From Gammaproteobacteria bacterium (GTDB lineage: Bacteria > Pseudomonadota > Gammaproteobacteria > Eutrophobiales > Eutrophobiaceae), in the NCBI GenBank assembly GCA_965116495.1, contig OZ220696.1, positions 256,001 through 320,000 on the forward strand: a stretch of DNA of 64,000 bases, given 5' to 3'. Positions 35,450-60,357 of the stretch are shown here, one piece after another (positions within the stretch are counted from its first letter, which is position 1; every line of letters begins with the position of its first letter). A program made the position numbers and the translations under genes. Under the pieces are notes generated by a model that saw nothing but the letters and a program-made list of their open reading frames with translations, was not told where the DNA came from and did no database searches.

Positions 35450-35679
35450 GAATTAAGAATTACGAATTACGAATGAATGTGCCGCCTGTGGCGGCTGTCT
35501 ACCTATGAGTCGTAGATTATTCGTAAGCCGGACCGAGACACATAGTGATATAACACCCCCAATTCCCAATTCCTAATTCCTAATTCCCAATTCCCAATTC
35601 CCAATTCCCAATTCCCAATTCCTAATTCGTAATTCCTAATTCCTAATTCGTAATTCCCAATTCGTAATTCCCAATTCCC
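35443..35679. repeat. Inverted pair of 7-nt tandem arrays, locus 1
   Basis: 4 x GAATTA(A/C) at 35443-35470, a ~90-bp spacer with a GCCGC/GCGGC hairpin, then 17 x AATTC(CC/CT/GT) at 35561-35679. Confidence 0.95.
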
Positions 35680-40435: not shown

Positions 40436-40666
40436 CTACTCATCAAACCAGCGATCCAGTTCATCGGTTTTCAGTTCTTCAATAGTGTAGGTGTTGAACG
40501 ACTTATAGACTTTCCAGTTGTATATTTTTGCCTCGATATCCAGCGTCTCCATGGCGTCTGCCTGCTCCAGCCGGACCCGGTATTTCCTGATTTGACCGTC
40601 GGCATAGTCATTACATTGCCTGACGAAATCACTGATGATTTTTTTCTTTTCCGTAACACTGACCAT
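40436..40666 (-). CDS. Small hypothetical protein
   Basis: MVSVTEKKK...WFDE with an AGGAG SD before ATG 40666. Confidence 0.6.
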   Translation of the reverse strand: MVSVTEKKKIISDFVRQCNDYADGQIRKYRVRLEQADAMETLDIEAKIYNWKVYKSFNTYTIEELKTDELDRWFDE

Positions 40667-40810
40667 AATATTCTCCTGGCTGGTAGTTGAAAGGACTTGC
40701 ACTGCACGCCAGTCTTTTCCATATGCACAGATTTAATGTATATTACCGGGTTAAGCAGATTTAACCGTATAATTATCTTACATAATCATATTATAACTTT
40801 GGGGATTGCT

Positions 40811-42055
40811 ATGGCTGATTATGTCACACATACCTTACCTGATGTCAGGTTGACCGATCACCTTCGTGAGATACTGGCCCAGCTTGACGAATCCAATGTT
40901 GAATTGAAGGACTGCATTAGCATGCCGCCGGCGGTATATACGTCCGAAGAGTGGTTCGATTTCGAGAAGCGGGCTGTCTGGGACAGGGAATGGATCTGCG
41001 TGGGGCACGTGGGTACGATACCACAGGCGGGCGATTACGTGTCCGTTACGATCAACGAAGACCCTCTCCTGGTACAGCGGCGGGATGACGGCGGCGTGCG
41101 GGTCATGTCTGCAGTGTGCCAGCACCGCGGTCACCTGTTGGGAGAGGAAAAAGGCAATACCCGGGTTTTTACCTGCCCTTTCCATGGCTGGTCCTACGAT
41201 GAAACGGGCAAGCTGGTCAGCGCCCCGGAAATGGACACTCATGCCAGCCTGGGTGAATTGCAGCAAAAATATTGCCTGCCGACATTGCGTACCGAGGTGT
41301 GGAACGGTTTTATCTTTATCAACATGGATGGTAACGCAAAACCCCTCGCCCCGCGCCTGAAACGGCTCGGCAAGGAGATTGAGAACCATCACCTCGCCGA
41401 GATGGGCGGTGTGCCTACGGTTGACTGGGGACCCAGTCCGTGGAACTGGAAATTCATGCACGAGAATGCCATTGAACCCCATCACACCTGGTACCTGCAC
41501 AAAGGGCCGCACGATTTTGCCCCTTCCAAGCTGGCTACTTTTGCAGAATGGGACGATTTCGATGACGGCGCCATATATCACCCGACCGGGTTCCTGGAAC
41601 TGGATGGTAATTTTACCTCTGCTTTCAGTTGCCTGTTTCCCGTGATCGAGGGCTTGAGCGAAAATGAACGCAAGCGGGTAATGTTCGCCTGTATCCTGCC
41701 CAACCTGTTCTTCGGTTGTGTGCCGGACGGTTGTTTTTATTACTGTATCCTGCCACAGGGCGCCAATGCCATGACCATCCGGGTCGGTTTTGTCTATCCT
41801 AAATCTACTCTGCGCATGGATAACTTCGATATCATTTTCAAGGCCGTTGTCATGGGTCTGGAAACCCTGAATGACCAGGATACCGGCGCCAACACCAATG
41901 TTCACAAGGGCCTGCGGTCACGTTTTGCGCCGCGTGGACGCTATGCCCCGAAAGAGGCGACCCTGCCGCAATTCAACCGCTGGTTGATAACCCGCTACAA
42001 GGCTTACGCGGCAGAGCTTGAAGGACGTAAGCAGACAGCTAAGCGGGTTGCTTGA
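40811..42055 (+). CDS. Rieske non-heme iron oxygenase, alpha subunit
   Basis: CQHRG...CPFHGW Rieske motif; ENAIEPHHTWYLH and DQD mononuclear-Fe ligands; start likely MADYV (40811). Confidence 0.93.
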   Translation: MADYVTHTLPDVRLTDHLREILAQLDESNVELKDCISMPPAVYTSEEWFDFEKRAVWDREWICVGHVGTIPQAGDYVSVTINEDPLLVQRRDDGGVRVMSAVCQHRGHLLGEEKGNTRVFTCPFHGWSYDETGKLVSAPEMDTHASLGELQQKYCLPTLRTEVWNGFIFINMDGNAKPLAPRLKRLGKEIENHHLAEMGGVPTVDWGPSPWNWKFMHENAIEPHHTWYLHKGPHDFAPSKLATFAEWDDFDDGAIYHPTGFLELDGNFTSAFSCLFPVIEGLSENERKRVMFACILPNLFFGCVPDGCFYYCILPQGANAMTIRVGFVYPKSTLRMDNFDIIFKAVVMGLETLNDQDTGANTNVHKGLRSRFAPRGRYAPKEATLPQFNRWLITRYKAYAAELEGRKQTAKRVA

Positions 42056-42058
42056 GGG

Positions 42059-42261
42059 GAATTAAGAATTACGAATTACGAATTAGGAATTAGGAATTAG
42101 GAATTAGTGCATCCTGGCAATTAGCAATCCATATTGTAAATTTTGCCAGAACTGAAATCCTTACACGTCGCCACATGCGTCTCATTCAATTCCTAATTCC
42201 TAATTCCTAATTCCTAATTCGTAATTCCTAATTCGTAATTCCTAATTCGTAATTCGTAATT
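42059..42261. repeat. Inverted pair of 7-nt tandem arrays, locus 2
   Basis: 7 x GAATTA(A/C/G) at 42059-42107, an 80-bp spacer, then 10 x AATTC(CT/GT) at 42188-42257. Confidence 0.95.
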
Positions 42262-42269
42262 ATATCGAT

Positions 42270-43022
42270 ATGAGTAATGAACTTGCCGAAATAAAGGGAC
42301 TGCTGGAAAAGCTGGATGCCAAGTTGACCCACCTCGAAGACGTGGAGGCGATACAGCGCCTGATAGTAACGTACGCCAGGGGTTGTGATCGCGGCAATGA
42401 CCCTGACGTCATCGGCCCCTGTTTCGCAGAAGACGGTACCTGGGAATGCAAGGGTTTCGGCAAATACCATGGCCGGGATAAACTGGCAAGGGGACTGCAC
42501 GGGATTGCCGGCGAGAAAATCTGGTGGTCGTTACACTACATGATCTCCCCGCTTATCGACATCGCTCCTGACGGTCTCAGCGCCACGGTATTCTGGTACC
42601 TGTGGGAATCGGCAACCGTACCCAACCCCCACACCAATGAGGCGGAATCCCACTGGATAGGCGGCACCTACGACTGTCAGTGCGTCAAGCGGGACGGACG
42701 CTGGCTGTTCCAGTCCATGGAATTGAAGCTGAATATGGTGAGTCCGTACGACGACGGTTGGGTAAAAGCCAAATTCCTCGATGGCAGCCGTAATTCACCC
42801 TACCTGATGAACCTGGACGAGGGTGAGTATTACTGGTGCGCCTGCGGCCGCTCGCAAAATCAGCCGTTCTGCGACGGTTCCCACAAGGAAACGAGACGCG
42901 TGCCGCTGCAATTCAAACTGGACGGCTTCCAGCATGTTGCCCTGTGCGGTTGCAAGTACTCGAAAACCAAGCCCTGGTGTGACGGTTCACATTTAAAACT
43001 CAACCTGGACCAGGGTTCCTGA
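42270..43022 (+). CDS. NTF2/SnoaL-like domain fused to two CDGSH [2Fe-2S] motifs
   Basis: N-terminal LEDVEAIQRL..YARGCD..FAEDGTW..H..GTY..KRDGRW; C-terminal WCACGRSQNQPFCDGSH and LCGCKYSKTKPWCDGSH. Confidence 0.88.
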   Translation: MSNELAEIKGLLEKLDAKLTHLEDVEAIQRLIVTYARGCDRGNDPDVIGPCFAEDGTWECKGFGKYHGRDKLARGLHGIAGEKIWWSLHYMISPLIDIAPDGLSATVFWYLWESATVPNPHTNEAESHWIGGTYDCQCVKRDGRWLFQSMELKLNMVSPYDDGWVKAKFLDGSRNSPYLMNLDEGEYYWCACGRSQNQPFCDGSHKETRRVPLQFKLDGFQHVALCGCKYSKTKPWCDGSHLKLNLDQGS

Positions 43023-43024
43023 CC

Positions 43025-44677
43025 ATGCTTTCCAGAAGAATATTCCTTAAATCATCCGTCGCGGCTGCAGGCGCGCCCCTGGCTGCCCATGCAGGGATGG
43101 TGGCAGGAGATGAACTGCAGGGGACCCCCCAGCCGGAGATTTTAACACCTGCCGAGTACAACCAGGCTGTTGAGGAATTGCGTCAGGTCGTCGGTGCTGA
43201 GTGGGTGGTTACCGATGAACAGCAGGAACTGAGAACGTATCGGGATGTCTATTCGACGCTACCTGACGAGGCTAATATGCCGTCTGCAGCGGTTGCGCCC
43301 AGGACCGTTGAGGAGATCCAGGCCATCCTGGGCATTGCCCGCAATTATAAGATTCCCCTTTGGACCGTTTCCACCGGCAAGAATTATGCCTACGGCGGTC
43401 CGGCGCCGCGCAAGCCCGGTTTTTTTGTCCTCGATTTAAACCGCATGAAGCGTATCATCGAGGTCAACGAGGAACACGGCTATGCCGTGGTTGAACCGGG
43501 GGTCAGCTATTTTGAGTTGTATAATTACCTGCAACAACGCGGCAGCAAATTATGGATAGACCCTGCGGCCCCGGGTTGGGGCAGCGTACTCGGCAACCTG
43601 TCGGAGCACGGAGCCGGTTACACACCCTATGGCGACCACCTGTTGATGAACTGCGGTATGCAGGTGGTGCTCGCCGACGGTACCGTCGTTGATACCGGCA
43701 TGGGGGCCTTGTCCGGCTCCACTACGTCCAGCCTGTACAAATATGGTTGCGGACCCTGGGTGGAAGGCATGTTCACCCAGTCAAATTTCGGCATCATAAC
43801 CAAAGTGGGTATCTGGTTGATGCCCGAGCCGCCGGGATACCGGCCATACCTGGTGACATTCCCGCGCGAAGAAGATCTTTACCGGATTACCGAGGTTGTC
43901 GGTCCCTTGCGTCTTAATATGTTGATACCCAATGCGGCAACGACCGTAGGACTGATCTGGGAAGCTGCCCCCAGGGCAACCAGGAAGCAGTATTACCGCG
44001 GTAAGGGTCCCATGCCCATGCGCCATCGCCAAAAAATGGCGGAGGACCTGGACATCGGCATGTGGAATTTTTACGGCGCGCTGTATGGACCTGAACCGAT
44101 TATGGATAACAACTGGAAAGTCCTGGAAGAGGCCTTTCGCAGCATCCCCGGCGCTAAATTTTACTTTGAAGGGGACAGGCCGAATGATCCGGCCTGGCGC
44201 TACCGGGTCAAGCTTATGCGCGGCGAACCGAACATGACCGAATTCAGCTTAATGAATTGGGTGGGCAGTGGTGCGCATATCGATTTCTCGCCGCGCTCAC
44301 CGGTAACCGGCGAGGATTCCATGAAACAGTTCACACTGATTAGGGACCGGGCGAATGAGTACGGGTTCGATTATATCGGTGAGTTCCTGGTGGGATGGCG
44401 TGAACTCCTGAACATCTTTCAACTGGTTTTTGATCGCCTGGATGACGATGAGCGGCGCCGCGCCCATGAGTGTTTCGGCCTGCTGGTCAATGATTTTGCC
44501 GAACAGGGTTATGGTGAGTACCGTACCCATCTCAATTTCATGGACGAGATTGCCGCCACCTATAACTGGAACGAAGGGGCGCTATGGAAATTACACCACA
44601 GAATCAAGCAGGCGCTCGATCCGGATGGTATTTTGTCACCGGGTAAAAGCGGCATTTGGCCATCTCAGGTAAGTTAA
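43025..44677 (+). CDS. VAO / p-cresol methylhydroxylase family flavoprotein with Tat signal
   Basis: SRRIFLK twin-arginine motif; STGKNYAYGG, VEPGVSY, GYTPYGDH, GAHIDFSP, GEYRTH, DPDGILSPGK. Confidence 0.92.
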   Translation: MLSRRIFLKSSVAAAGAPLAAHAGMVAGDELQGTPQPEILTPAEYNQAVEELRQVVGAEWVVTDEQQELRTYRDVYSTLPDEANMPSAAVAPRTVEEIQAILGIARNYKIPLWTVSTGKNYAYGGPAPRKPGFFVLDLNRMKRIIEVNEEHGYAVVEPGVSYFELYNYLQQRGSKLWIDPAAPGWGSVLGNLSEHGAGYTPYGDHLLMNCGMQVVLADGTVVDTGMGALSGSTTSSLYKYGCGPWVEGMFTQSNFGIITKVGIWLMPEPPGYRPYLVTFPREEDLYRITEVVGPLRLNMLIPNAATTVGLIWEAAPRATRKQYYRGKGPMPMRHRQKMAEDLDIGMWNFYGALYGPEPIMDNNWKVLEEAFRSIPGAKFYFEGDRPNDPAWRYRVKLMRGEPNMTEFSLMNWVGSGAHIDFSPRSPVTGEDSMKQFTLIRDRANEYGFDYIGEFLVGWRELLNIFQLVFDRLDDDERRRAHECFGLLVNDFAEQGYGEYRTHLNFMDEIAATYNWNEGALWKLHHRIKQALDPDGILSPGKSGIWPSQVS

Positions 44678-44680
44678 ACA

Positions 44681-45070
44681 GTGCTCCCTGTGTCCTCCGT
44701 GGCAAAAATATCCGTGGCAATATTGTTGTTATTGCTGGCGGGCTGTGGCGGTGATGAAGCCCCCGGGACAGGTGAGGCGGCAGTCGGGCAGGCCACCATG
44801 GCGATAGACCAGTATGATGGCAAAGGCTTGTTCGAGTTATATTGTATCGCCTGTCATGGCGCGGGACCCGGCCACCCGGGTACCATGCGCCTGCAGGAAA
44901 GGCTGAGTGAAGATCAGGCGCCCCTGCTCAGCCGGGATAACCTGGAGCCCGAGTATGTAAAGCTGGTGGTACGGGAAGGCTTCAAGCTGATGCCGCCGTT
45001 TCGCCCCAGTGAAATCACCGATAAGCAGTTGGACCTGTTGACGGGCTATATTACGGGGGAAGAAAACTGA
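44681..45070 (+). CDS. Monoheme cytochrome c, lipoprotein (PchC-like partner)
   Basis: LLAGC lipobox, CIACH, VREGFKLMPPFRPSEI. Confidence 0.88.
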   Translation: MLPVSSVAKISVAILLLLLAGCGGDEAPGTGEAAVGQATMAIDQYDGKGLFELYCIACHGAGPGHPGTMRLQERLSEDQAPLLSRDNLEPEYVKLVVREGFKLMPPFRPSEITDKQLDLLTGYITGEEN

Positions 45071-46554
45071 TGGATATGGAGACCGTCACATTATCACCTG
45101 AGGCCCGGGCCGTAGCGAAACGGGTCCGCAATCTACGTGATTACCTTGAATTACTGGCTGAGCACGGTCAGTGTATTACCTGGCCGGAAGCAGTCATGCC
45201 AGAGCCTGATATCCGTAAGGTTGTCGTTGCGTCCGGGCGCGATGCAATGGCGGGGCCGGCCATCCTGTTTGACAAGATCCGCGGTTACCCCGGAAAAAGA
45301 CTGGTAGTAGGCGTGCATGGCAGTTTTTCCAATATTGCCCTGCTGTTGGGCAAGACGAAAGGGACCAGTATCAAGGAATTGTTCTACGAACTTATAGGTC
45401 GTTGGGGCTCCGACAGGCCGCTGATCAACAGGGTGGAACCGGAAGATGCACCGGTGCACGAGAACAGGCTTGAAGCTGATATCAACCTGTATGACCTGCT
45501 GCCGTTGTATCGTATCAATTCCCTGGATGGCGGTTTTTATATCGCCAAGGCCAATATTGTCAGCCGCGATCCCCGTGACCCCGATAATTTTGCCAAACAG
45601 AACGTGGGAATATACCGCATCCAGGTACAGGGTCCTGACCGATTTACCTTGTTGTCTGTCCCGTCCCATGACATGGCGCAACAGATCCGCATGGCGGAAC
45701 AGGATGATGTCCCGTTGAAGATCGCCGTGATGATCGGCAACCACCCGGCCATGGCCATGTTTGCAGCCACTCCGGTGAATTACGACGAATCGGAATTTGC
45801 CTACGCCTCGCAGATGATGGGCAGCCCCATTGACCTGACCCGGTCCGGCAATGGCCTGGATATCCTCGCCGGCTCGGAAATGGTCATAGAAGCGCAATTA
45901 TTGAATAACCGGCGCTGCCTGGAAGGGCCGTTCGGAGAATTTCCGGGTAGTTACAGTGGTATTGGCCGAGTCCCCCTGTTCCAGGTGACTGCCGTATCCC
46001 ACCGTACCGAGCCCATCTTTGAAAGTATTTATATCGGCAAGGGCTGGACCGAGCACGACACCTTGATCGGGCTGAATACCTCTGCGCCCATTTACTCCCA
46101 ATTAAAGGAAAACTTTCCTGAAGTCGTTGCGGTGAACGCCTTGTACCAGCACGGTTTGACCGCGATCATTTCGGTGAAGAACCGGTTTGCCGGTTTCGCC
46201 AAATCAGTTGCCATGCGCGCCCTCGGGACACCCCACGGCCTGTTGTACCTGAAAAACCTTATCATGGTGGACGACGACGTGGATCCCTTTGATCTCAACC
46301 AGGTGATGTGGGCTCTGTCCACGCGCACCCGCGCCGGTGATATTATCGTCATACCCAACATGCCAATGGTGCACATTGACCCGTCTGCGGAAATTCCGGG
46401 CAAGGGACATCATCTTATCATTGACGCAACCAGCTTCATGCCGCCTGATCCCATCGGCGCTGACGCAAAAATCGTAGCGCCGCCCAGGGGTCCCGAAATA
46501 GATGACCTGGCAAAGTATATTCATCGTTTGCAAAGAGAGGCGGAAAACCGATGA
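45070..46554 (+). CDS. UbiD-family non-oxidative hydroxyarylic acid decarboxylase subunit C (VdcC/BsdC-like)
   Basis: DGGFY, QNVGIYRIQV, EGPFGEFPGSY, VDDDVDPF, WALSTR; followed by a D subunit. Confidence 0.92.
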   Translation: MDMETVTLSPEARAVAKRVRNLRDYLELLAEHGQCITWPEAVMPEPDIRKVVVASGRDAMAGPAILFDKIRGYPGKRLVVGVHGSFSNIALLLGKTKGTSIKELFYELIGRWGSDRPLINRVEPEDAPVHENRLEADINLYDLLPLYRINSLDGGFYIAKANIVSRDPRDPDNFAKQNVGIYRIQVQGPDRFTLLSVPSHDMAQQIRMAEQDDVPLKIAVMIGNHPAMAMFAATPVNYDESEFAYASQMMGSPIDLTRSGNGLDILAGSEMVIEAQLLNNRRCLEGPFGEFPGSYSGIGRVPLFQVTAVSHRTEPIFESIYIGKGWTEHDTLIGLNTSAPIYSQLKENFPEVVAVNALYQHGLTAIISVKNRFAGFAKSVAMRALGTPHGLLYLKNLIMVDDDVDPFDLNQVMWALSTRTRAGDIIVIPNMPMVHIDPSAEIPGKGHHLIIDATSFMPPDPIGADAKIVAPPRGPEIDDLAKYIHRLQREAENR

Positions 46555-46793
46555 ACTGCCCCCGCTGCCGCTCAACCAAAGAACACCTGCGGGTCGAATA
46601 CCAGGGCAGGGAAGGGGATGCCGTGCTCTGGACCGTGTATCACTGTAACCGTTGTTCGTTCACCTGGCGCGACAGCGAGCCGGCCGAATCGATAAATTAT
46701 ACAAAGCGGGAAGCCTGGTTCAGGGCCGATCCGGACCACCCGGAAAAATACAAACACAATATTCCCCCGGCAAGCCCGGACACAGGGGAATGA
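46551..46793 (+). CDS. Hydroxyarylic acid decarboxylase subunit D (VdcD/BsdD-like)
   Basis: CPRC...WTVYHCNRCSFTWRDSEP zinc-ribbon pattern; ATGA overlap with subunit C. Confidence 0.9.
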   Translation: MNCPRCRSTKEHLRVEYQGREGDAVLWTVYHCNRCSFTWRDSEPAESINYTKREAWFRADPDHPEKYKHNIPPASPDTGE

Positions 46794-46882
46794 TAATGTA
46801 TAGCGCACTTTTTTATTGCCCGGCATGGCGTAGAAAGAGGCGGTGGTGAGGAGACGACCCGTTGACTCCAGGATAAGCTTGT

Positions 46883-48316
46883 ATGTCAAAAATATTGATC
46901 AATAAACTGAGAAAAGAACTGGGCAGGGACGCTGTTTTGTCCGGCGCCGTTGCCGGTGATCGTTACTCACGCATCGGCAAATCACCGGTCGGTGTGGCGC
47001 TGCCGGAAGATATTGAACAGCTGCGGGCTGTATTGTCAGTTGCTGATGAAAGCAATATCTCGCTATGGGTCCTGCCCAACACGGCAGCTAACGGAGGCGT
47101 GGTTGGTCCTGCAACGGATAAGGATATCCTGGTAATCGATCAGTCCCGTATGAACAAAATCGTGGAGGTGAACGTCAAGGGAGCTTACGCACTGGTGGAA
47201 CCGGGCGTGAGTTATATGCAGTTAAATAACTACCTGCAGGAAAACAGGACCGGCCTGTGGGTGGATTGCGACAGGAACGGCTTGAACTCGGTTGCCGGCA
47301 GCATCAGCGCCCGGGAGTTCGGCTGTACCGCCTACGGCGACCACACAATGATGCAATGCGGTATGGAGCTCATTCTGGCTGACGGCGAACTGGTGAGACT
47401 GGGTATGGGCGCCATGCCGAAGAGCAACACCTGGCAGCTGGCAAAATATGCCTACGGCCCCTACCTGGATGGCCTGTTTACGCAATCCAACCTGGGCATC
47501 GTGACCAAAATGGGCGTATGGCTGATGCCGGCGCCGCCTGCATACCAGCCCTTCGCTGTGACCTTGAAGAGCGACGGTGACCTGGCCCAGGCGCTGGAGA
47601 TATTGCGTTCATTCAAGGTTAACGTAATCATTCCGAACACGGTGGTCATCAGTAATCCGGAACTGGATGCGAGTCCTTACGCGTCACGGGATGATTATAC
47701 CGACGGCAAAACGGTCGATACGGAACGGCTGGCAGCGGATTATGGTCTGGGCCAGTGGACCCTGTATGGGGCCTTGTATAACACCCCTCCCAACATCGAT
47801 GTATTATGGCCCATGGTACGCAGCGCATTCGCCGGCATTCAGGACGCTGTAGTGTTCGACCTGAACAACCAGGCGGACAACCCGGTATTTGCCGGCAGGG
47901 AGAACATGATGCGCGGCCGGCCCTCGCTGGAATTCAGTAACCTGAACAACTGGTCCGGCCAGTCTCACCTGTACGCCGGGTTTGTCTCCCCCATTGACGG
48001 CCGGCAGGTATTGAAGATGAATAAACTGGCCAGCGACACGGTGCGCAGCAGCGGATTTGATTACCTGACGGAGTACGCGGTCGGCTGGCGCTCCGTCATC
48101 CAGCGGGTTTATCTGACGTATCAAAGTGAAGCCGAACCCAGGGCGGTCGCGTGTCTTGAAACATTGATAGACTCGATGGCACAACGGGGTTTCGGCGTGA
48201 GCCATATCAGCACCGGGTACCTGGACCGGGCCCTGGCCGGCTATGATAACGCCGGCATGTCCGAATTGCGCGGCAGGCTCAAACAGGCGCTGGATCCCGG
48301 CAACCTGTTTGCCTGA
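46883..48316 (+). CDS. Second VAO/PCMH-family flavoprotein, no signal peptide, divergent active site
   Basis: VEPGVSY, YGDH, YGPYLDGLFTQSNLGIVTKMG, LKQALDP; lacks the NYxYGG and YR motifs. Confidence 0.85.
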   Translation: MSKILINKLRKELGRDAVLSGAVAGDRYSRIGKSPVGVALPEDIEQLRAVLSVADESNISLWVLPNTAANGGVVGPATDKDILVIDQSRMNKIVEVNVKGAYALVEPGVSYMQLNNYLQENRTGLWVDCDRNGLNSVAGSISAREFGCTAYGDHTMMQCGMELILADGELVRLGMGAMPKSNTWQLAKYAYGPYLDGLFTQSNLGIVTKMGVWLMPAPPAYQPFAVTLKSDGDLAQALEILRSFKVNVIIPNTVVISNPELDASPYASRDDYTDGKTVDTERLAADYGLGQWTLYGALYNTPPNIDVLWPMVRSAFAGIQDAVVFDLNNQADNPVFAGRENMMRGRPSLEFSNLNNWSGQSHLYAGFVSPIDGRQVLKMNKLASDTVRSSGFDYLTEYAVGWRSVIQRVYLTYQSEAEPRAVACLETLIDSMAQRGFGVSHISTGYLDRALAGYDNAGMSELRGRLKQALDPGNLFA

Positions 48317-48335: not shown

Positions 48336-49010
48336 TCACTCTCCCGGGACTCCATAACCCGGGGCTGATGACGGGTTGTTTGCGCGTGATATGTAATCAG
48401 CCATTTGCGGGGCATATCTATCCCATAATTCCCTGAGTTCGGCCAAAGGATTATGGTCTGTCCAGTCAATACGTAGATCTACCAGGGGCCAGCTGTTGCC
48501 ACCGACAACCAGCAAACCGGCGGAGTGTATCGGTCCTGCTTCGCCGCCTGCTTTCAAACCCCCATCCATTGCATCGAGCAAACGGTCAGCCAGCAAAGTT
48601 TTGCCCGAGTCAAGAAATTCGTCAATCATCACCGTTGTGACATTACCGGCGCTTAATAAATTACCTGCGGCTATACAGTTTTTACCCCGTGAGATATTAT
48701 TAATTCCGAGCGATTTGCTGCCGTTGAACCCGCTTGTACTGCCCTGGTTATCTACGGCAATCACCTGTCTGTAATCTGCATTAACTTCATTACTCATCAC
48801 TTCCAGCATAGCCGCTTTGACGTCCTTTCCTTGTTCCATTTGATCCAGGATTGCAGGCCCTAAAGAGGGTAGAGTGATATTTTGGGTAGATACTGCCCCC
48901 ACTCCGGATCTCGCCCATGGACATCTGCTCGCAACGCATATACTGGAAGACGAAATCGCAATGCCATATTGTTCAGTTTGATGACACTTTGCAACGATTG
49001 AGAAAGTCAT
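48336..49010 (-). CDS. DUF1028 family protein (Ntn-hydrolase-like)
   Basis: MTFSIVA start, GVGAVSTQN, AAGNLL, AGGEAGP, DLRID. Confidence 0.9.
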   Translation of the reverse strand: MTFSIVAKCHQTEQYGIAISSSSICVASRCPWARSGVGAVSTQNITLPSLGPAILDQMEQGKDVKAAMLEVMSNEVNADYRQVIAVDNQGSTSGFNGSKSLGINNISRGKNCIAAGNLLSAGNVTTVMIDEFLDSGKTLLADRLLDAMDGGLKAGGEAGPIHSAGLLVVGGNSWPLVDLRIDWTDHNPLAELRELWDRYAPQMADYISRANNPSSAPGYGVPGE

Positions 49011-49025
49011 GATTAGGGATTATAT

Positions 49026-49460
49026 TTATTCAGGAATGACCGCTGTTACTTCTATTTCCATCAGCCATTCTGGTTTGGCCAGGCCCTGTACAATCAATCC
49101 CGTAGAAACGGGATAAACACCCTTCAGCCACCTGCCCAGTACACGGTAAACCGGCTCGCGATAAGATCGATCGGTGATATAGACTTGCATCCTGCAAATA
49201 TGCGCCAGCTCACTGCCTGCCTCGCGCAATAGTTGATCGACATTCTTCATTGCTTGATCTGCCTGTGCTGCCGGGTCACCGGCGCCAACGAGATTTCCCT
49301 TCAGGTCAGTTCCAACCTGGCCACGCAGGAAGATGATGTTGCCGGCTATCACGGCCTGACAAAGATCATTATCCAGGTTTTGCTCAGGATAGGTCTCTTT
49401 GGTGTTGAACTTGCGAAATCGTTTATGGATCGGCATGAAGGGTAAATCCATTATTGTCAT
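49026..49460 (-). CDS. RidA/YjgF family protein
   Basis: FLRGQVG, QADQAMKN, PVSTGL, EIEVTAV. Confidence 0.9.
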   Translation of the reverse strand: MTIMDLPFMPIHKRFRKFNTKETYPEQNLDNDLCQAVIAGNIIFLRGQVGTDLKGNLVGAGDPAAQADQAMKNVDQLLREAGSELAHICRMQVYITDRSYREPVYRVLGRWLKGVYPVSTGLIVQGLAKPEWLMEIEVTAVIPE

Positions 49461-50956
49461 ACAGCTTTCAGTTTTACTTTATTTTGAAAATCCTCTTTAC
49501 CCGCTGATTTTGAATCAATTCTGTCGGAAAGTCTTGCCGCTTTTTTGACAATATTCAGGGGTTCATCCCAATCGAAGTTACGATATACCGCCGCCAGGTG
49601 TGCAAAAGGAGGTGATTGTGCGAATAATTGAAAGGTAAGCCGATGGCTGGCATAGTCGGAGTTTAATAAATCACGGGCAAAAGCGAGCAATCTGCGACGG
49701 TCTTCCGAGACCCAGTTATCATTTATGCTGTAGTACTTGTCTAACCAGACTCCGCTGTCACTGTCGGTAAATGCGGCCGCATCCGGGGTGATACAGACCT
49801 GACCGCCGCAGAGCTCTCTTGTGAGGTGCATCATTTCATGTAATTGGGAGCAGGCCAGTACCCGACCTGTGTACAGAAGGGATTGATTAGGCATCAACAA
49901 ACCGCCCGGACTTTTCTGCGCCGTTGCGATTGCTGCGGTCAGGTGGGCATTAATACCTTCCCGGTAAACAGCCAGTGCAGAGAGTTTTTCCTGGACAGCC
50001 GGCTGTTTTTCCAGACCCGTCTGTCTGACATTGTACAGGGCTGCGCCAATCATCATGTCGGCCATTTTCAAATTCCGCTGTACGAAAGCGAATGCGCTGT
50101 ACCTGTGCAGGGTTGCTCGAATAAACGTTGCTGCCCTGGTATGGCGATAAAACAGCACGTTTTCCCACGGGATCAATACATCATCGAAAACAACAAGCGC
50201 GTCTATTTCATCAAACCTGTTTGACAGGGGGTAATCTTCAAGAGGCGCACGACCTGTAAAACCTGTCCGGCATATCATTTTAATGCCCTTTGACCCCAGG
50301 TTACAGATGAAGCCAACCGCATATTCTGATAGAGCCGCATTACCCCAATTTGCGATAGTAGGCTTGGTAAAGGCTTGATTGGCATAAGCTGCCGCAGTTT
50401 CATATTTGGCCCCCCTTACTACTATCCCTGCATCAGTTTCCCTGACAACATGGAGCAGCATGTCAGGGTCCTGTTCCTGCGGGGGTTTGGAACGATCTCC
50501 CTTGGGGTCGGTATTGGCGGACACATGAAAAGGATCAGTTTTTGTGATTCGATTAACATGCCGTTTAATGTTGTCTGCAAAGCGCGGGTCGACTTCGTTA
50601 AGAATATCCTGTCCATCGTATAAGGACCACACTTCTCCAACGGTTTCATCACCAACCCTGGTAACTACACCACCGATATCATTTAACACGGTATCCGTTG
50701 CCTTGCGTTTGTCATGCCAGTCCTGTTGTGTATGGGGCAGCTTGAGTGAGATCGCGTTCGTCTCCCCCTTATCATCGATGTAAGTCATAATCTGACGCGT
50801 GCTTTCATCATGCGCCATGTCATAAATACGCGCCCTGATATCGACTATCGGTTTAAATGCGGGATGGGAAGGAACATCCTTGATTTTTTCTCCATCCATG
50901 TAAACTTCACGCCCATCACGAATGGACTCGATATATTCCTTGCCAGTACGAATCAT
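49457..50956 (-). CDS. 4-hydroxyphenylacetate 3-hydroxylase (HpaB) family monooxygenase, oxygenase component
   Basis: RTGKEYIESIRDGREVY, DPKGDRS, GIVVRGAK, PLSNRFDEID, IPWENV. Confidence 0.88.
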   Translation of the reverse strand: MIRTGKEYIESIRDGREVYMDGEKIKDVPSHPAFKPIVDIRARIYDMAHDESTRQIMTYIDDKGETNAISLKLPHTQQDWHDKRKATDTVLNDIGGVVTRVGDETVGEVWSLYDGQDILNEVDPRFADNIKRHVNRITKTDPFHVSANTDPKGDRSKPPQEQDPDMLLHVVRETDAGIVVRGAKYETAAAYANQAFTKPTIANWGNAALSEYAVGFICNLGSKGIKMICRTGFTGRAPLEDYPLSNRFDEIDALVVFDDVLIPWENVLFYRHTRAATFIRATLHRYSAFAFVQRNLKMADMMIGAALYNVRQTGLEKQPAVQEKLSALAVYREGINAHLTAAIATAQKSPGGLLMPNQSLLYTGRVLACSQLHEMMHLTRELCGGQVCITPDAAAFTDSDSGVWLDKYYSINDNWVSEDRRRLLAFARDLLNSDYASHRLTFQLFAQSPPFAHLAAVYRNFDWDEPLNIVKKAARLSDRIDSKSAGKEDFQNKVKLKAV

Positions 50957-51051
50957 TTACATAACTCCGTTAAAGACAGCATCACTTAGGTATTAGAGAG
51001 ATTTCTAAGCGCGGGATAGAGAGTCTAAAGGCAGGAGAGAATAAAACCAAT

Positions 51052-51081
51052 TATAAAAAATGTATGTCAAAGATAAAAAAT
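51052..51081. promoter_or_regulatory. Putative LysR-type operator upstream of the hpaB-like operon
   Basis: T-N11-A / ATA-N7-TAT at 51052-51065; ATAAAAAAT repeated 20 nt apart; LysR gene nearby. Confidence 0.45.
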
Positions 51082-51114
51082 AGTTTAAATATCACCTTCA
51101 TAATTATCCTTGAG

Positions 51115-52269
51115 CTACGGATGTGTCATACGGGAAATTAAATTTCCCATGAATTTTTCACCACGCAATATTTGCTCGAAGGTAATGAATTCATCCGGTT
51201 TATGTGCCTGGGCGATACTGCCCGGACCGCAAATCACGGTGGGAATATTGATACTATGAAACAGTCCGCCTTCGGTCCCAAAATCGATTTTAGCCGTATC
51301 AGATCGGGAAACAAGTGATTTTACGAAGGAGACTGCTTCACTGTCAGGATGAGTGAAGAGGCCGGGATAGGAGGTTTTTTCAATGATTGTGATATCCGTA
51401 TTCTTATGGGTTCTTCGCATCAATGGTTTAAGAACGCTATTTGCAAAATTCTTGATTTTATCCAGATAAGCCTGTGGGTCATCGTCCGGAAGATTTCTAA
51501 TCTCAAATTCAAACTCACAATTATCCGGAACAATATTCAGTAGACGCCCGCCTGAAATCGGGCCGGTATTGAGGGTCGTGTATGCAATATCATAATCCGG
51601 GTCAAACGGGCCTTTATCAGCGATCTCCTTCTGTAGAGACCGGATAAAGACGATTAATTCAGCGGCGTACTCCACCGCGTTAATCCCTTCGATTACGGCG
51701 AGCGCGGAATGGCACTCCTGTCCATCCACACAAACATGAAACGCAACTTTCCCCTTGTGACCATTGATTACCTGCATCCCGGTCGGCTCACCCACAATAC
51801 ACAATCCTGGTAAAACCAAAAAATCCTTCAGTTTGTCAATCAGACTCCTTACCCCCAAACAACCTACTTCTTCATCATATGAAAAGGACAGGTGTAAGGG
51901 CAGCTTTAAATCCAGTTTTGTCATATCCGGAATAAATGACAACACAATCGCGATGAAGCTCTTCATATCCACACAACCTCTTCCAAAAAGACGGTTGTCA
52001 TTTTCCTGTACTCTGAAAGGTTCGGTCGACCAGTCCTGCCCGTCAACCGGAACCACGTCGGTATGCCCCGAGAGCAGGATGCCGGATTGGTTCGGGTTTC
52101 CTATCGTGGCAAAGAGGTTGGCCTTCGTTTTGTCGGCATTGTAGATTAATTCGCTGGTAACCCCATATTCATCCAGGTAATTTTCTATAAACCGGATTAA
52201 CTCCAAGTTGGAAAGCCTGCTTGTTGTGTTAAAGGAAACCAGTTCCTCAATTAATTTCCTGCTTCGCAT
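51115..52269 (-). CDS. argE: M20 peptidase, acetylornithine deacetylase (ArgE)-like
   Basis: SGHTDVVP, GRGCVDMK, YDEEVGC, GTEGG, QAHKPDE; context suggests a catabolic paralogue. Confidence 0.85.
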   Translation of the reverse strand: MRSRKLIEELVSFNTTSRLSNLELIRFIENYLDEYGVTSELIYNADKTKANLFATIGNPNQSGILLSGHTDVVPVDGQDWSTEPFRVQENDNRLFGRGCVDMKSFIAIVLSFIPDMTKLDLKLPLHLSFSYDEEVGCLGVRSLIDKLKDFLVLPGLCIVGEPTGMQVINGHKGKVAFHVCVDGQECHSALAVIEGINAVEYAAELIVFIRSLQKEIADKGPFDPDYDIAYTTLNTGPISGGRLLNIVPDNCEFEFEIRNLPDDDPQAYLDKIKNFANSVLKPLMRRTHKNTDITIIEKTSYPGLFTHPDSEAVSFVKSLVSRSDTAKIDFGTEGGLFHSINIPTVICGPGSIAQAHKPDEFITFEQILRGEKFMGNLISRMTHP

Positions 52270-52330
52270 GGCGCGAATTATAGCTTATCTGGGGTGCTGA
52301 ACTGTGTAGCGGCAGTGTGGAGCGACCAAA

Positions 52331-53248
52331 TCAGGAGGCCAGGTCAGTTACATCGTTTGACTGACAAAACTCCAGAAATCTTTTTGCTACGGCAGTAGCT
52401 TGCAACCCATCAAGGTGTGCGGCGCAGACTATGCTGGGTTTCAGTTTTTCAGAGATAGGTCGCCTTACAATGGGATGATGTTCATAGGTGATGTCCGATG
52501 GAGGTCGGGTAACCAGAATGGAAACACCGAGATTCCAACCCACCAATCCACGCAATACTTCCAGCGAGGGTGCTTTGTATACAATATTCGGTTTCAGGTT
52601 GTATTCCTCAAACAGACCTAAGAAGTACTGGCGAGCCGATGAAAAATCCAGAAGCACAAACGCTTCATCCACAAGGTCATACAAAGACACGCATTCTTTG
52701 CCGGCGAGTGGGTGATCTTCTGAAAGCACGGCATAGGGCTGACCTTCCAGGATTGGAAGTACTGCTATGTCATGGGGAACACTGATGTCATACAACAGGG
52801 CGAGTTCAATCTCACCGGTTCTTAATTGTTCAATTATCCGGTCCTGATCGCCTTCTGATAAGGTGAACTCTACTTTTGGGTATTTTTCCTGAAAGCGTTT
52901 AATCAGGGTCGGCATGAATACAGGGGACAGAGGCGCGTAACTGCCGATGCTGAGTTCTCCGGACAACTCCTCACTGAGGGCCATCGCCGTGTGCTGGAAC
53001 GCTTCAGCATGCCTGACCAGGTTTCTTGCTTCTGCGAGAACTTTTTTCCCGGCTGGGGTAAGCGTAATTCCATGAGCATGGTGGCGATTTATCAAATCAA
53101 CGCCGAATTGGGTTTCCAACTTGGTAATTGCGGAAGCAATAGCCGGCTGTGCAATATGCACGTGTCTCGCAGCCTTGGTCAGACTCTCGTGTTCGGCAGT
53201 AGCGATAAAATAAGTAAGTTGCCTTAGTGTGTATTTCAGCCTCGCCAT
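52331..53248 (-). CDS. LysR-family transcriptional regulator
   Basis: TLRQLTYF..SLTKAA..IAQPAIASAI HTH, LTPAG. Confidence 0.95.
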   Translation of the reverse strand: MARLKYTLRQLTYFIATAEHESLTKAARHVHIAQPAIASAITKLETQFGVDLINRHHAHGITLTPAGKKVLAEARNLVRHAEAFQHTAMALSEELSGELSIGSYAPLSPVFMPTLIKRFQEKYPKVEFTLSEGDQDRIIEQLRTGEIELALLYDISVPHDIAVLPILEGQPYAVLSEDHPLAGKECVSLYDLVDEAFVLLDFSSARQYFLGLFEEYNLKPNIVYKAPSLEVLRGLVGWNLGVSILVTRPPSDITYEHHPIVRRPISEKLKPSIVCAAHLDGLQATAVAKRFLEFCQSNDVTDLAS

Positions 53249-53394
53249 GCTTCATCCTGTATTTGAGCCTTATGCATATCAGCATATATGAAATCGGCGT
53301 CCGGCACCATGTGATAAGTAGAGAAGGTGTCTTACTTGGTTTTTTTCAGAGATGGGGCTATGCTGGTAAAAAATACAACGCGGAGGGGTTGATA

Positions 53395-54684
53395 ATGAAC
53401 AGTTCACCTGATTTTAACGGCAAGCTCAATCTACTGGATGGCATCGATGGTTCTGCGCTCAGGTTAAGCGCCGACGATCCCCAATTTGCCGAATTCCCCA
53501 TCTCTGAATATACACGCCGTTACGCCCGTGCAATCCGCTTAATGGAAGAGTTTGACTTTGATGCGCTGCTGCTCACCCATGAACTTAATGTCCGCTATTT
53601 CTCCGGTTATCTCTCCATCTTGTGGGAATCCCGTTTCCGTTCGCTGGTCCTTATTTTGCCCCGGAACCCGAAGACAGGCCCTACGCTCCTCGTGCCCGGT
53701 CAGGAGGCCGGCAATGCTTTCGGTACTTCCTGGATACCAGATCGGGTTATCTATCCCGATCAGGAAAACATCGTGCCGTATGTCATCGAAGCGGTGCACG
53801 ATAAGGGACTCCAGACCGGACGCCTCGGGATGGAACTGGGATTTGGCCAGCGAGTGGGAATGACGCAGGAAGATATCGGGCGCCTCTATGAAGGACTTCC
53901 CGAGGCGGACATCAAGAGTGCAACGGAATTGATACAGACAGTGCGCATGATCAAATCTTCCCAGGAGATTGAACGGGTACGCAAGGCCTGTGATATTTCG
54001 CAGCGCGCCGTGGCAGAGGGATTCTCGTCACTTCATGAAGGTATGACGGAAAAAGAACTGGGTGCGGTTCTTGGCGCGGCCATGTTTCGGGAGGGCGCCG
54101 AGTTAAGCTCTCGTCCGAGCATGATGAATGTCTCCAGTTTTCCCGGCCGCCCCAAAATGGTCAATGCCCTGGCCAGCGACCATGCATTATGCCGGGGTGA
54201 CGTGGTGATGATCGACGGGGGCGCTGTCTATGGCGGATATGCGACCGACTTTATCAGGCAGGCATTTCTCGGCCCCCCGACCGATGACCAGCGCCGCTGG
54301 TTTGACGTGGCAATTGAGGCCAACAACGCCTGTATTGGCGCGGTGAAGCCGGGGGTAAGCTGCGCGGATGTTTACGAGGCCGGGATCGGCGTCTTCGAAC
54401 GTCATGGGCTGGTCGATTACAACTGCATAAACATTGTCGGTCATGCGGTCGGTATGGAAGTGCATGAACTACCGTGGCTGGGCGAGCGCGGTGTTGTTTA
54501 CAGTTCAAACACGCGCCTCGAACCTGGCATGGTATTTTGTGTTGAACCGGTCATAGCCGGAATGGATGGGCCTGAGTGGCTCGCGGGTGTTTTCATGGTG
54601 GAAGATAAACTGCTCGTCACGGAGAATGGTTGTGAGGTTCTGACCAACTCGTTATCCAAGGAGTTGTGGATTCAGGAACTCTGA
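53395..54684 (+). CDS. M24 (Xaa-Pro peptidase / creatinase / ectoine hydrolase fold) hydrolase
   Basis: Start likely MNSSPDF (GGAGG SD); RMIKS, DGG..YATD, GHAVG..HE, VEP, VED. Confidence 0.88.
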   Translation: MNSSPDFNGKLNLLDGIDGSALRLSADDPQFAEFPISEYTRRYARAIRLMEEFDFDALLLTHELNVRYFSGYLSILWESRFRSLVLILPRNPKTGPTLLVPGQEAGNAFGTSWIPDRVIYPDQENIVPYVIEAVHDKGLQTGRLGMELGFGQRVGMTQEDIGRLYEGLPEADIKSATELIQTVRMIKSSQEIERVRKACDISQRAVAEGFSSLHEGMTEKELGAVLGAAMFREGAELSSRPSMMNVSSFPGRPKMVNALASDHALCRGDVVMIDGGAVYGGYATDFIRQAFLGPPTDDQRRWFDVAIEANNACIGAVKPGVSCADVYEAGIGVFERHGLVDYNCINIVGHAVGMEVHELPWLGERGVVYSSNTRLEPGMVFCVEPVIAGMDGPEWLAGVFMVEDKLLVTENGCEVLTNSLSKELWIQEL

Positions 54685-54693
54685 CAGCACATC

Positions 54694-55977
54694 ATGGCCA
54701 CTTTTAAGGAGTTGGTAGAGGATTACTCGCGCCACCAGGTCCCTGAACACAAAACGGTGGGTGGTATCCACATCGGCATTATTATCATTGGTGTCGGTAT
54801 CACGATAACCGCTTTCATACTGGGAAGCCAGATGGGTCTGAGGCTTGGCTTCTGGGATAGTCTCCATGCGTTCTACCTCGGCGGATTTCTGCTTGCAGTT
54901 GTTGCGGGATTTACCGGCATCGTCGGCGCCTCGACCAGACTATCCACAGCGATGATTATCAGGACGACCTTCGGTGTATCCGGGGCGAAGTTTGTCAATT
55001 CGGTCCTGATGCTGGTCATGATGGGTTGGTGCATGGTTCTCGCAGCTTTTTTCGGGGATGCGATGCACGCCGGACTCGAGACCAACTGGGGTGTCATATC
55101 ACTACCGAGAGAATTTTATATCGCGCTCGGTTCGGCCGTGATGGCGTTGATCACTGTCTTTGGATTCAAGGCGCTGGACAAGCAGTCGCTGGTCATGGTG
55201 CCAATCATGCTGGGATTCCTGTTTACTATCCTGTATCTGGCTCTGCGCCGAATGAGCCTGTCCGACATCACCAGCCTGGAAACAGCAACCGGCCCCGCTA
55301 TGGGATTGGGGGCCGCAACGTCGATAGTGGTCGGTTCATTTATCGTAGGCGCAACCATTTTTCCCGATATTTGTCGTTATGTTCGGAATCGCCCGCAGGC
55401 AGTTACCGGCTCATTTATTGCCTTTTTACTGGGTTATCCGGTTATCCTGATTTTATCCGCAGTTCCGAGCATTGCGACGGGCGAAACGGATTTGATGATT
55501 GTCGTGACCATGCTTGGGTTCAGTGTGCTCGGTTTCATTTTCCTGGTATTTGCATCACTGACAACCGGTACTTTTCAACTGTACAGCGCGTCACTGGCGT
55601 TTGCGGCCCTGGTTAAAACCGACAAATGGAAACTCGTCATTGTGATTGCCGTTATCACTACGGTTGTCGCCATATTTTTCTCAATTGACTATTTTCTGGA
55701 TTGGTTGACGTTTCTCAGCATACTAATTCCTCCGATCAGCGGAATTTACGTCACGCATCACCTGCTTACGAACCGCAGGACTGCCGGCCGGCATGCCGCT
55801 CCGGATATCTCCTTTCCTGCGTTTGGCGCTTGGATAGCCGGAACCATAGTAGCTTTCATTGCCCATAACGGCTCGTTGCAATTCACGTCGATAGCCGCTA
55901 TCGACGCAATTCTTGTCGCATCGTTCTGCTATTATTTGCTTCAGACGCTGGCAGGGAAAAATACGAACGAGACATGA
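54694..55977 (+). CDS. Cytosine/purine permease (NCS1, CodB-like)
   Basis: EDYSRHQVP, FGVSG, PDICRY, IPPISGI; about 12 TM segments. Confidence 0.85.
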   Translation: MATFKELVEDYSRHQVPEHKTVGGIHIGIIIIGVGITITAFILGSQMGLRLGFWDSLHAFYLGGFLLAVVAGFTGIVGASTRLSTAMIIRTTFGVSGAKFVNSVLMLVMMGWCMVLAAFFGDAMHAGLETNWGVISLPREFYIALGSAVMALITVFGFKALDKQSLVMVPIMLGFLFTILYLALRRMSLSDITSLETATGPAMGLGAATSIVVGSFIVGATIFPDICRYVRNRPQAVTGSFIAFLLGYPVILILSAVPSIATGETDLMIVVTMLGFSVLGFIFLVFASLTTGTFQLYSASLAFAALVKTDKWKLVIVIAVITTVVAIFFSIDYFLDWLTFLSILIPPISGIYVTHHLLTNRRTAGRHAAPDISFPAFGAWIAGTIVAFIAHNGSLQFTSIAAIDAILVASFCYYLLQTLAGKNTNET

Positions 55978-56124
55978 AGTCCATAACTGAATGATTGTGA
56001 AAATAAAAATAATGTATTTAAGTTGTAACTATTATTATTGAAGTGGAGTTGTCTTATTGCACTGAGTATCTGGTAAATTGACCCTCTTGAGGATTGTTAC
56101 TACGCAATGTAATCGGGGGTAGAA

Positions 56125-58434: not shown

Positions 58435-58532
58435 AGGGCCGGGTAACAGTAATCGAGGATTTTTCCGCTACCGGCATCGGCAGCATGAAATAGCTTGTTG
58501 CCCGGAGATGCAATCCGCGCCAAAGATTCCCC

Positions 58533-59787: not shown

Positions 59788-60357
59788 TCAGTTTTTCACG
59801 CCCTCCCAGCGCTTCACGATACCGGGTTCGATATCAAACAGGTCCAGCACGCGGCCGATACTGGCGTTGATAATGTCGTCAAGGCTCTGGGGACGGTTGT
59901 AAAACGCCGGTATGGGCGGGGCGATGATCGCTCCCAGTACCGAAGCTTCGTAGAATAACTTGCAGTGTCCCGTGTGCAACGGGGTCTCACGGGGCATGAT
60001 CACCAGGCGCCGGCGTTCCTTGAGGATCACGTCCGCGGCCCGTACCAGCAGGTTTTCTGCGTAAGAGTTTGTTATTGCCGACAGCGTCCGCATGGAACAG
60101 GGAGCGACAATCATACCGTCAGTCTTGAAAGAACCGCTGGAAATACTGGCAGCAACATCCTTTATGTTGTATGTCACGCCGGCCAATGCCTCTATGTCGG
60201 TGACGTCATGGTCCGTTTCAATACCGATATTGAGCTTGGCCGCGTTGGTCATGACCAGGTGGGTTTCAATATCCGAAATGTCTGCCAGCACTTGAACCAG
60301 CCGGATACCGTAAGGCAGGCCGCTGGCCCCGGACATGCCGATAATAATTCGTTTCAT
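59788..60357 (-). CDS. ubiX: Flavin prenyltransferase
   Basis: GMSGASG, SSGS, APCSM, RAADVILKERR, RETP, PAFY. Confidence 0.95.
   Translation of the reverse strand: MKRIIIGMSGASGLPYGIRLVQVLADISDIETHLVMTNAAKLNIGIETDHDVTDIEALAGVTYNIKDVAASISSGSFKTDGMIVAPCSMRTLSAITNSYAENLLVRAADVILKERRRLVIMPRETPLHTGHCKLFYEASVLGAIIAPPIPAFYNRPQSLDDIINASIGRVLDLFDIEPGIVKRWEGVKN

Follow-up and report, generated by a model that had tools for sequence, protein, structure and literature searches.

The genes described here have their closest counterparts in several separate systems, and what is said of these refers to the available parts of the cited papers. The vanillyl-alcohol dehydrogenase (VAD) of Marinicaulis flavus carries the proline at flavin N5 that marks dehydrogenases and a flavin-linking histidine; it oxidises vanillyl alcohol, 4-hydroxybenzyl alcohol and eugenol and does not oxidise p-cresol (PMC7617285). 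The p-cresol methylhydroxylase (PCMH) PcmI/PcmJ/PcmG of Geobacter metallireducens, known to us second-hand from a preprint, has two flavoprotein paralogues. In VdcCD decarboxylases, VdcD is a required allosteric subunit (PMC8379154). NadCD of Novosphingobium aromaticivorans decarboxylates protocatechuate to catechol with prenylated flavin mononucleotide (prFMN), more slowly than AroY; it is the only part of the plasmid pNL1 cluster SARO_RS17170-17205 to have been assayed in vitro, and protocatechuate accumulates when Saro_3873-8 is deleted in a ligAB mutant (Vilbert et al., PMC10807440). The wild type does not rely on NadCD as a major way of degrading protocatechuate (PMC12710314), as would be expected if the natural substrate were a different one, and pNL1 was reported to carry predicted p-cresol genes (PMC3946609). 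We analysed a window of 64,000 nucleotides (nt; the whole stretch of DNA studied, positions 256,001 to 320,000 of the forward strand of contig OZ220696.1, assembly GCA_965116495.1) from a gammaproteobacterium of the Eutrophobiaceae, in which seven genes at 40,811-48,316 combine relatives of these enzymes with a Rieske oxygenase and a SnoaL-CDGSH fusion protein.

All seven open reading frames (ORFs) lie on the + strand and are real, and the families named in an initial annotation of the window were recovered. In order, they encode a Rieske oxygenase alpha subunit (40,811-42,055; Pfam PF00355 and PF00848), a fusion of a SnoaL_4/NTF2 domain with two CDGSH [2Fe-2S] motifs, assigned by domains and predicted structure (42,270-43,022), an active-type VAO/PCMH flavoprotein with its own twin-arginine (Tat) leader, PchF1 (43,025-44,677), a PchC-like c-type cytochrome with a lipoprotein-type leader (44,681-45,070; lipobox-like LAGC, CIACH), the prFMN-dependent hydroxyarylic acid decarboxylase VdcC (45,070-46,554), its zinc-ribbon activator VdcD (46,551-46,793) and a second PchF-like protein, PchF2 (46,883-48,316). 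The junctions measure 214, 2, 3, -1, -4 and 89 nt, which bears out the earlier description of seven co-directional genes, several abutting or overlapping. A PchF-like match was present in 19 of 22 congeners, and the loci of 16 of these were compared, gene content being called from ORFs and tblastn; all seven genes stood in the same order in 15, the remaining one having no counterpart of the first two, and the arrangement is conserved, not unique to this genome. Purifying selection was seen against 14 congeners, with median ratios of non-synonymous to synonymous substitution rates (dN/dS) of 0.05-0.06 for the Rieske, fusion, PchF1 and VdcC genes and of 0.13, 0.14 and 0.18 for VdcD, PchF2 and the cytochrome. 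Congener order and dN/dS together confirmed that the arrangement is beyond chance. The system is patchy, since a PchF-like match at E<1e-80 occurred in 6 of 400 genomes (an even sample of the class, window genome included, one genome unscored).

The seven genes are two modules, a flavocytochrome-decarboxylase core and a Rieske/SnoaL-CDGSH pair, each of which also occurs alone elsewhere; the initial annotation had missed this, and also that the second flavoprotein has no catalytic residues. Our reading, to which we give a probability of roughly 0.55, is that the locus would be a conserved fusion of the two modules which strips the para side chain from a phenol, with the Rieske pair feeding in a bulkier p-hydroxyphenyl compound.

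Five of the genes (pchF, cytochrome c, vdcC, vdcD and the second pchF) match the pNL1 cluster, whose order is ubiX-X-pchF-aldh-vdcC-vdcD-pchF'-cytC, and the core is thus already partly known; the names pchFa and pchFb reportedly go back to Romine 1999 on this plasmid. Since the published nadC primer is an exact match to pNL1 vdcC, NadCD is the pNL1 vdcCD gene pair. The earlier statement that no operon of this kind had been described does not stand for these five genes, which match a cluster with a characterised NadCD; it stands for the fusion gene behind a Rieske gene, on which no paper was found in the literature searched. Among plasmids, 7 of 19 VdcC matches (69-70%) were on records that also held a PchF of 59-64%, pNL1 and pBN2 being the ones examined, and no plasmid searched held a full fusion gene. 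No pNL1 gene tags were found among the 2,325 rows listed of the LigR supplement (expression data). VdcC, the orthologue of NadC, scored 657.6 bits with NF041204 (cut-off 650) and has the catalytic residues R183, E285 and E290; VdcD scored 59.9 with NF041205 (cut-off 30) and has the four cysteines C3, C6, C32 and C35. A gene for the flavin prenyltransferase UbiX/VdcB, assigned by homology, lies at 59,788-60,357 on the - strand, which completes the sequence features of a VdcCD/NadCD system.

PchF1 has VAD as its nearest relative and is 59% identical to pNL1 SARO_RS17180. It shows the features of a 4-phenol-oxidising VAO/PCMH dehydrogenase, namely A182-P183 at flavin N5, the flavin-linking H418, a cognate cytochrome and the Tyr/Tyr/Arg triad Y123, Y499 and R500, which corresponds to the active-site triad of VAO. 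Quite probably, the core combines oxidation with decarboxylation to take off a para side chain. On the model of VAD and PCMH, Tat-exported PchF1 would abstract a benzylic hydride in the periplasm, water would add to the quinone methide, and the electrons would pass to the membrane-anchored cytochrome c. Related clusters have an aldehyde dehydrogenase gene, inside or next to the core in 7 of the 9 loci scanned and also in pNL1 and pBN2. As it is missing here, the 4-hydroxybenzaldehyde would then be oxidised by the product of a gene located elsewhere. In the cytoplasm, VdcCD with UbiX-made prFMN would finally decarboxylate the hydroxybenzoate to a phenol or catechol for ring cleavage, a step modelled on the in vitro activity of the 69% orthologue NadCD (PMC10807440). 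The link between periplasmic quinone-methide oxidation and prFMN-dependent decarboxylation that the initial annotation had proposed is supported at the level of sequence.

PchF2 was predicted to have a full VAO fold (predicted local distance difference test score, pLDDT, 81; template modelling score, TM, 0.89 to 8S7W) and is without the Y123 loop, the Y499/R500 pair and the PGKxGIW tail of the 4-phenol-oxidising enzymes, having ANGGVV, GFGVSH and a C-terminal GNLFA; it has no export leader. Its dN/dS of 0.14 indicates that it is maintained and not decaying. The simplest reading is that PchF2 would be a non-catalytic alpha-prime subunit, probably exported and working as one half of a PchF1-PchF2 dimer; of the Geobacter PcmI/PcmJ pair, one flavoprotein subunit is reportedly non-catalytic. 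In a quick tree of 70 PchF proteins from 45 chosen loci and the window, the PchF2-type copies formed one clade of 21 with a Shimodaira-Hasegawa-like approximate likelihood ratio (SH-aLRT) of 99, in which long branches may pull dead copies together, and its subgroups broadly paralleled those of the active neighbouring PchF copies. In pNL1 the sole cytochrome gene comes after the dead pchF copy, and a PchF2 homologue is present in the cultured Maricurvus nonylphenolicus. Rather unlikely, in our view, is a joint alternative in which PchF2 has a chemistry of its own, as a diverged enzyme or as a sensor, and the CDGSH part of the fusion protein delivers or repairs Fe-S clusters instead of relaying electrons. 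For PchF2 it has in its favour that the whole fold is retained and that sister copies (L121, L181) keep a Tyr108-type loop and a cytochrome gene of their own; it is opposed by the missing leader and by the fact that the Tyr/Tyr/Arg residues are lost, the flavin-linking histidine position is variable and the C-terminus is truncated alike in counterparts from other Gammaproteobacteria, Binatota, pNL1 and pBN2.

Export of the active flavoprotein appears to be arranged in two ways. Outside the genus, a protein without a Pfam family, here called X, is encoded upstream of pchF; it has 185-210 amino acids (aa) and a twin-arginine motif. Among 40 loci with vdcC and an active pchF, 23 combined X with a PchF on which no leader was detected, and 13 lacked X and had a leader on PchF; inspection of the other four by eye gave a leader from a GTG start in three genus loci and an upstream Tat ORF in one. 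In sum, the leader is on PchF and X is absent in 16 of 16 genus loci, and a separate Tat gene accompanies a PchF with no recognised leader in 24 of 24 other core loci. The X profile, built from 15 of the loci that it detects, gave 0 matches in the window genome; a search with a single X protein was blind (0 matches in 26 genomes, even those with X-like genes). The leaders are alike, PchF1 of the window having MLSRRIF and the X proteins of the nearest loci outside the genus MLSRRVF and MLSRRTF, from which we infer that a deletion may have placed the signal of X on PchF in the genus. Such a move suggests that X is an export carrier for leaderless PchF, a suggestion with one evolutionary event behind it. 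No description of the dead PchF2 clade or of a Tat protein X ahead of pchF was found in the literature searched; the 1999 pNL1 and 2008 PcmIJ papers may hold one.

The fusion protein was confidently modelled (pLDDT 93), with LdpA, LinA and BaiE as closest folds and 3TBN for the CDGSH part. Residues Y35, D40, H89 and Y134 of its SnoaL domain align with Tyr35, Asp40, His97 and Tyr147 of LdpA (PMC9942872, in part) and are invariant or nearly so in 97 fusion sequences; retention of this dyad and of the tyrosines argues for a catalytic lyase and not a structural beta subunit. The two tandem 3Cys-1His motifs (C190/C192/C201/H205 and C226/C228/C237/H241), predicted [2Fe-2S] sites, are those of type 6 CDGSH proteins. 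In the available parts of two CDGSH surveys, neither SnoaL nor NTF2 was mentioned in PMC5859297 and SnoaL was not mentioned in PMC3174974. Among 120 matches listed there were 103 near full-length clusters at 90% identity, and 53 loci were found in species-representative genomes, 37 of them outside the genus; record titles placed the hosts in Gamma- and Alphaproteobacteria, Binatia, 'delta' proteobacteria and single Planctomycetota and Actinobacteria bins. The gene for a Rieske alpha subunit stood directly upstream in 50 of the 53 loci, and in 47 it was of the same subfamily; of the 37 loci outside the genus, 34 showed this arrangement. The three that depart from it are L060, where the contig ends, L065 and L078. 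A different Rieske gene (about 25%), accompanied by two small genes of which one is EthD-like, was observed directly before the fusion gene in L059 (8112-9985), L063 (8065-9968) and L072 (8436-9982), where it replaces or adds to the usual partner. That the CDGSH part is an electron relay of the Rieske enzyme is a tentative idea, to which we give rather less than even odds; the cluster-delivery half of the alternative introduced above can point to NEET domains being known cluster donors (PMC5859297).

The Rieske protein has the cluster ligands C103, H105, C122 and H125 and, at the bridging and iron positions, E222, H225, H230 and D357, all invariant in a 40-row alignment. It has no close named or solved relative: the best solved ones reached only E~1e-30, and plasmid matches were at best 39%. 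The GbcA model scored 105 bits against a cut-off of 670, below a GbcA/CntA-type assignment; a partner of the alpha3beta3 kind is not evident either, the adjacent protein matching SnoaL_4 only, with its catalytic dyad kept, and no Ring_hydroxyl_B. Prediction of a complex between the Rieske protein and the fusion protein, run without controls, scored 0.00 and counts neither for nor against such a complex. An O-demethylation step, offered as an option by the initial annotation, is not supported, as the protein has Ring_hydroxyl_A and no VanA_C (PF19112) match and VanA-type genes are elsewhere in the genome (L003); no specific evidence was found for the suggested lignin origin of the substrates. 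No reductase or ferredoxin is encoded in the cluster, which is normal for this genome given its 59 Rieske domains in 4.3 Mb against 2 Reductase_C and 5 NAD_binding_1 matches.

With somewhat better than even odds, the pair serves the same route as the core, by a side entry or a ring step. In the side entry, the part of the scheme we hold most loosely, the Rieske enzyme might hydroxylate the side chain of a bulkier p-hydroxyphenyl compound, and the SnoaL domain might hold the phenolate by Y35 and Y134 and use H89-D40 for an elimination or cleavage that passes through a quinone methide; the CDGSH pair might relay electrons from a shared reductase. A ring step just before or after decarboxylation (hydroxylation or O-dealkylation of a substituted phenol or hydroxybenzoate, SnoaL rearomatising a dihydrodiol, the cluster ending in a catechol) would avoid an extra membrane crossing and suits both the acceptance of protocatechuate by NadCD and the dehydratases among SnoaL_4 relatives; the missing VanA_C domain and the HpaB-type hydroxylase already found beside the same Rieske pair in Binatota clusters speak against it, and we consider it improbable.

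Whether the two modules share a metabolism was judged mainly from loci outside the genus, where 9 of 37 fusion loci had vdcC and 9 of 37 had pchF. All parts were together, in the same order and with X, in L059, L062 and L063; they were also together in the Binatota loci L070, L073 and L075, with divergent vdcDC, an HpaB-type hydroxylase and an extradiol dioxygenase. The core-linked fusions fell into two clades with different gene orders, and their monophyly was rejected in an approximately unbiased (AU) test (p-AU 0.0001; 40 rows, three genus representatives, labels from synteny, run after a quick tree had been seen). Repeated joining or repeated loss would account for this, and the result favours, without proving, a shared metabolism. 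The chief competitor, which we hold to be unlikely, is that two independent catabolic modules share a transcription unit merely through clustering of aromatic genes, the Rieske pair acting on an unrelated compound such as an N-methyl or heteroatom substrate in the manner of CntA/GbcA. Each module stands alone in most loci, GbcA is the best NCBIfam match of the Rieske protein and a carnitine monooxygenase a near-best PDB match, E222 at the bridging position is what we take to be a CntA-type trait, and Rieske genes abound in the genome; independence is harder to square with a fusion gene 2 nt from pchF1 at a junction kept in 15 of 16 congeners, with recurrence of the link in Binatota in another gene order and in separate clades, and with the phenolate-binding tyrosines of LdpA being kept in the SnoaL domain.

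Several observations weigh against our reading of a conserved fusion of modules. Neither vdcC nor pchF was near the fusion gene in 26 of the 37 loci outside the genus, some of which are short contigs, nor in 14 of the 20 such loci of at least 17 kb; at least 12 of 85 loci (some near-duplicates), and also pNL1 and pBN2, have the core but no Rieske pair, and one congener is without the pair. The rejected monophyly could equally reflect repeated loss. A paralogous pair of a SnoaL-CDGSH gene (57%) and a Rieske gene (40%) lies in reversed order at L001 (9783-14379), away from pchF and vdc genes. With 59 Rieske domains, a Rieske gene near any catabolic cluster is not rare here, and since orphan oxygenases share the few reductases, CDGSH is not needed as a carrier. 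For the aldehyde dehydrogenase of related clusters no close orthologue was found in the genome (best 35-38%), and Ala182 in place of Asp150 means that the substrate range of PchF1 may differ from that of VAD. Finally, the essential Glu143 of LdpA (motif II) is Ile130 in the fusion protein (PMC9942872, in part). A more far-reaching version seems doubtful. In it, the locus would represent a new Rieske architecture in which a single partner protein is both the quinone-methide lyase acting downstream and a NEET-type carrier of electrons. It would be linked to a flavocytochrome heterodimer that has a dedicated pseudo-enzyme as one subunit and is exported by a Tat carrier protein, the signal of which has passed to the flavoprotein in this genus.

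The 214-nt junction between the Rieske and fusion genes holds an inserted inverted repeat of (GAATTAG)n arrays (42,066-42,255) that forms a strong hairpin (z -10.4) and is no part of the system; 16 such pairs occur genome-wide, and for this reason the hairpin was dismissed as a terminator or RNA particular to the system. In 5 of 15 congeners only 14-28 nt separate the two genes, which marks the repeat as a recent insertion and not as a natural break. The element was also observed at 35,622-35,656 of the window, and other inverted-repeat elements occur at the same junction in congeners. A scan for promoters and terminators gave fewer sites than in shuffles. Metatranscriptome contigs (four runs of one study; a related strain about 95% alike) touch, among those listed, each of the seven genes and span the pchF1/cytC and vdcC/vdcD junctions, with shares of 0.05-0.11; they cannot show one transcript or exclude DNA and were not used as support. 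Divergent from the Rieske gene is an 88-aa ORF without a Pfam family (40,436-40,702, - strand), kept in 15 of 16 congeners (60% cut).

Downstream, 13 of 16 congeners had ubiX inside the 20-kb region compared, in many cases facing pchF2 in convergent orientation; here it is displaced by an 11-kb block (48,336-59,717) encoding DUF1028, Rid, an HpaB-like monooxygenase, ArgE, LysR, an M24 peptidase, a permease, a TonB receptor and an MFS protein; the HpaB-bearing block was at this site in just 2 of 16 congeners. A molybdopterin oxidoreductase gene (60,532-62,667) is divergent from ubiX; 12 of 16 congeners, as well as L063, have it close to the core. It is no more than a candidate for the missing aldehyde oxidation. 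The aromatic and oxygenase repertoire is extreme, with 9 UbiD-like genes in addition to the Rieske domains. Shortly after the downstream end of the window, at L002 (6839-12947), hydantoinase/acetone-carboxylase-like A and B genes lie between a second vdcD and a second vdcC (47% and 69%), with a LigB dioxygenase and a formamidase nearby; a third vdcC (70%) at L003 (5844-9542) has no adjacent vdcD and is convergent with two VanA-type Rieske genes. The paralogous pair in L001 has a TonB receptor, Rid and a 2-oxoglutarate/iron oxygenase as neighbours, and a second fusion copy was found in 12 of 22 congeners.

If our reading is right, NadCD in its native setting probably stands at the end of a route for side-chain removal and is not a stand-alone protocatechuate shunt, and one more pair, a decarboxylase and a dehydrogenase, would be available to those prospecting for phenol-funnelling enzymes. 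The role of the second pchF, X as an export carrier and electron transfer from CDGSH to the oxygenase are leads that can be addressed in culturable hosts: the Rieske/SnoaL-CDGSH pair is present in Novosphingobium isolates, and the core in N. aromaticivorans.

Set beside the known systems, the window is nearest to the pNL1 cluster, with identities of 59% for pchF, 69% for vdcC, 42% for vdcD, 39% for the degenerate second pchF, 40% for cytochrome c and 49% for ubiX. All six genes are together in both, except that ubiX is displaced by 11 kb here; the window cluster encodes neither X nor an aldehyde dehydrogenase, has the Tat leader on PchF1 and adds the Rieske/SnoaL-CDGSH pair. VdcCD of Sedimentibacter hydroxybenzoicus (7AE4; PMC8379154, in part) shares the ERE triad, the zinc-ribbon D subunit and the dependence on UbiX, whereas here the enzyme would be embedded in an oxidative funnel and, as the pocket differs, its preferred acid may differ. 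With VAD of M. flavus (8S7N-8S7W; PMC7617285, in part) PchF1 shares the N5 proline and the flavin-linking histidine; Ala182 stands where VAD has Asp150, and by this residue PchF1 does not fit the VAD clade. A cognate cytochrome c is common to PchF1 and PCMH PchFC, but PchF1 is without the Tyr-linked flavin adenine dinucleotide (FAD) motif of PCMH proper (NWRGGGGSMWF) and has NWVGSGAHIDF, of the His type; a Tat leader on PchF1 and a dead paralogue in the same cluster distinguish the window from both VAD and PchFC. The Geobacter PcmI/J system, likened to PchF2 by description only, also has two PchF paralogues and one cytochrome, with Tyr-linked FAD and a membrane bc-type complex there. The lyases of the NTF2/SnoaL_4 fold LdpA, LinA and BaiE (PMC9942872, in part) share the fold, the His-Asp dyad and the Tyr pair; unlike LdpA, the fusion protein is without Glu143 and has a C-terminal tandem CDGSH part and a genetic tie to a Rieske oxygenase. 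With type 5/6 CDGSH proteins (3TBN, MiNT; PMC3174974 and PMC5859297, in part) it shares the tandem 3Cys-1His motifs, at 48% identity to 3TBN, to which it adds the fusion with an NTF2 domain.

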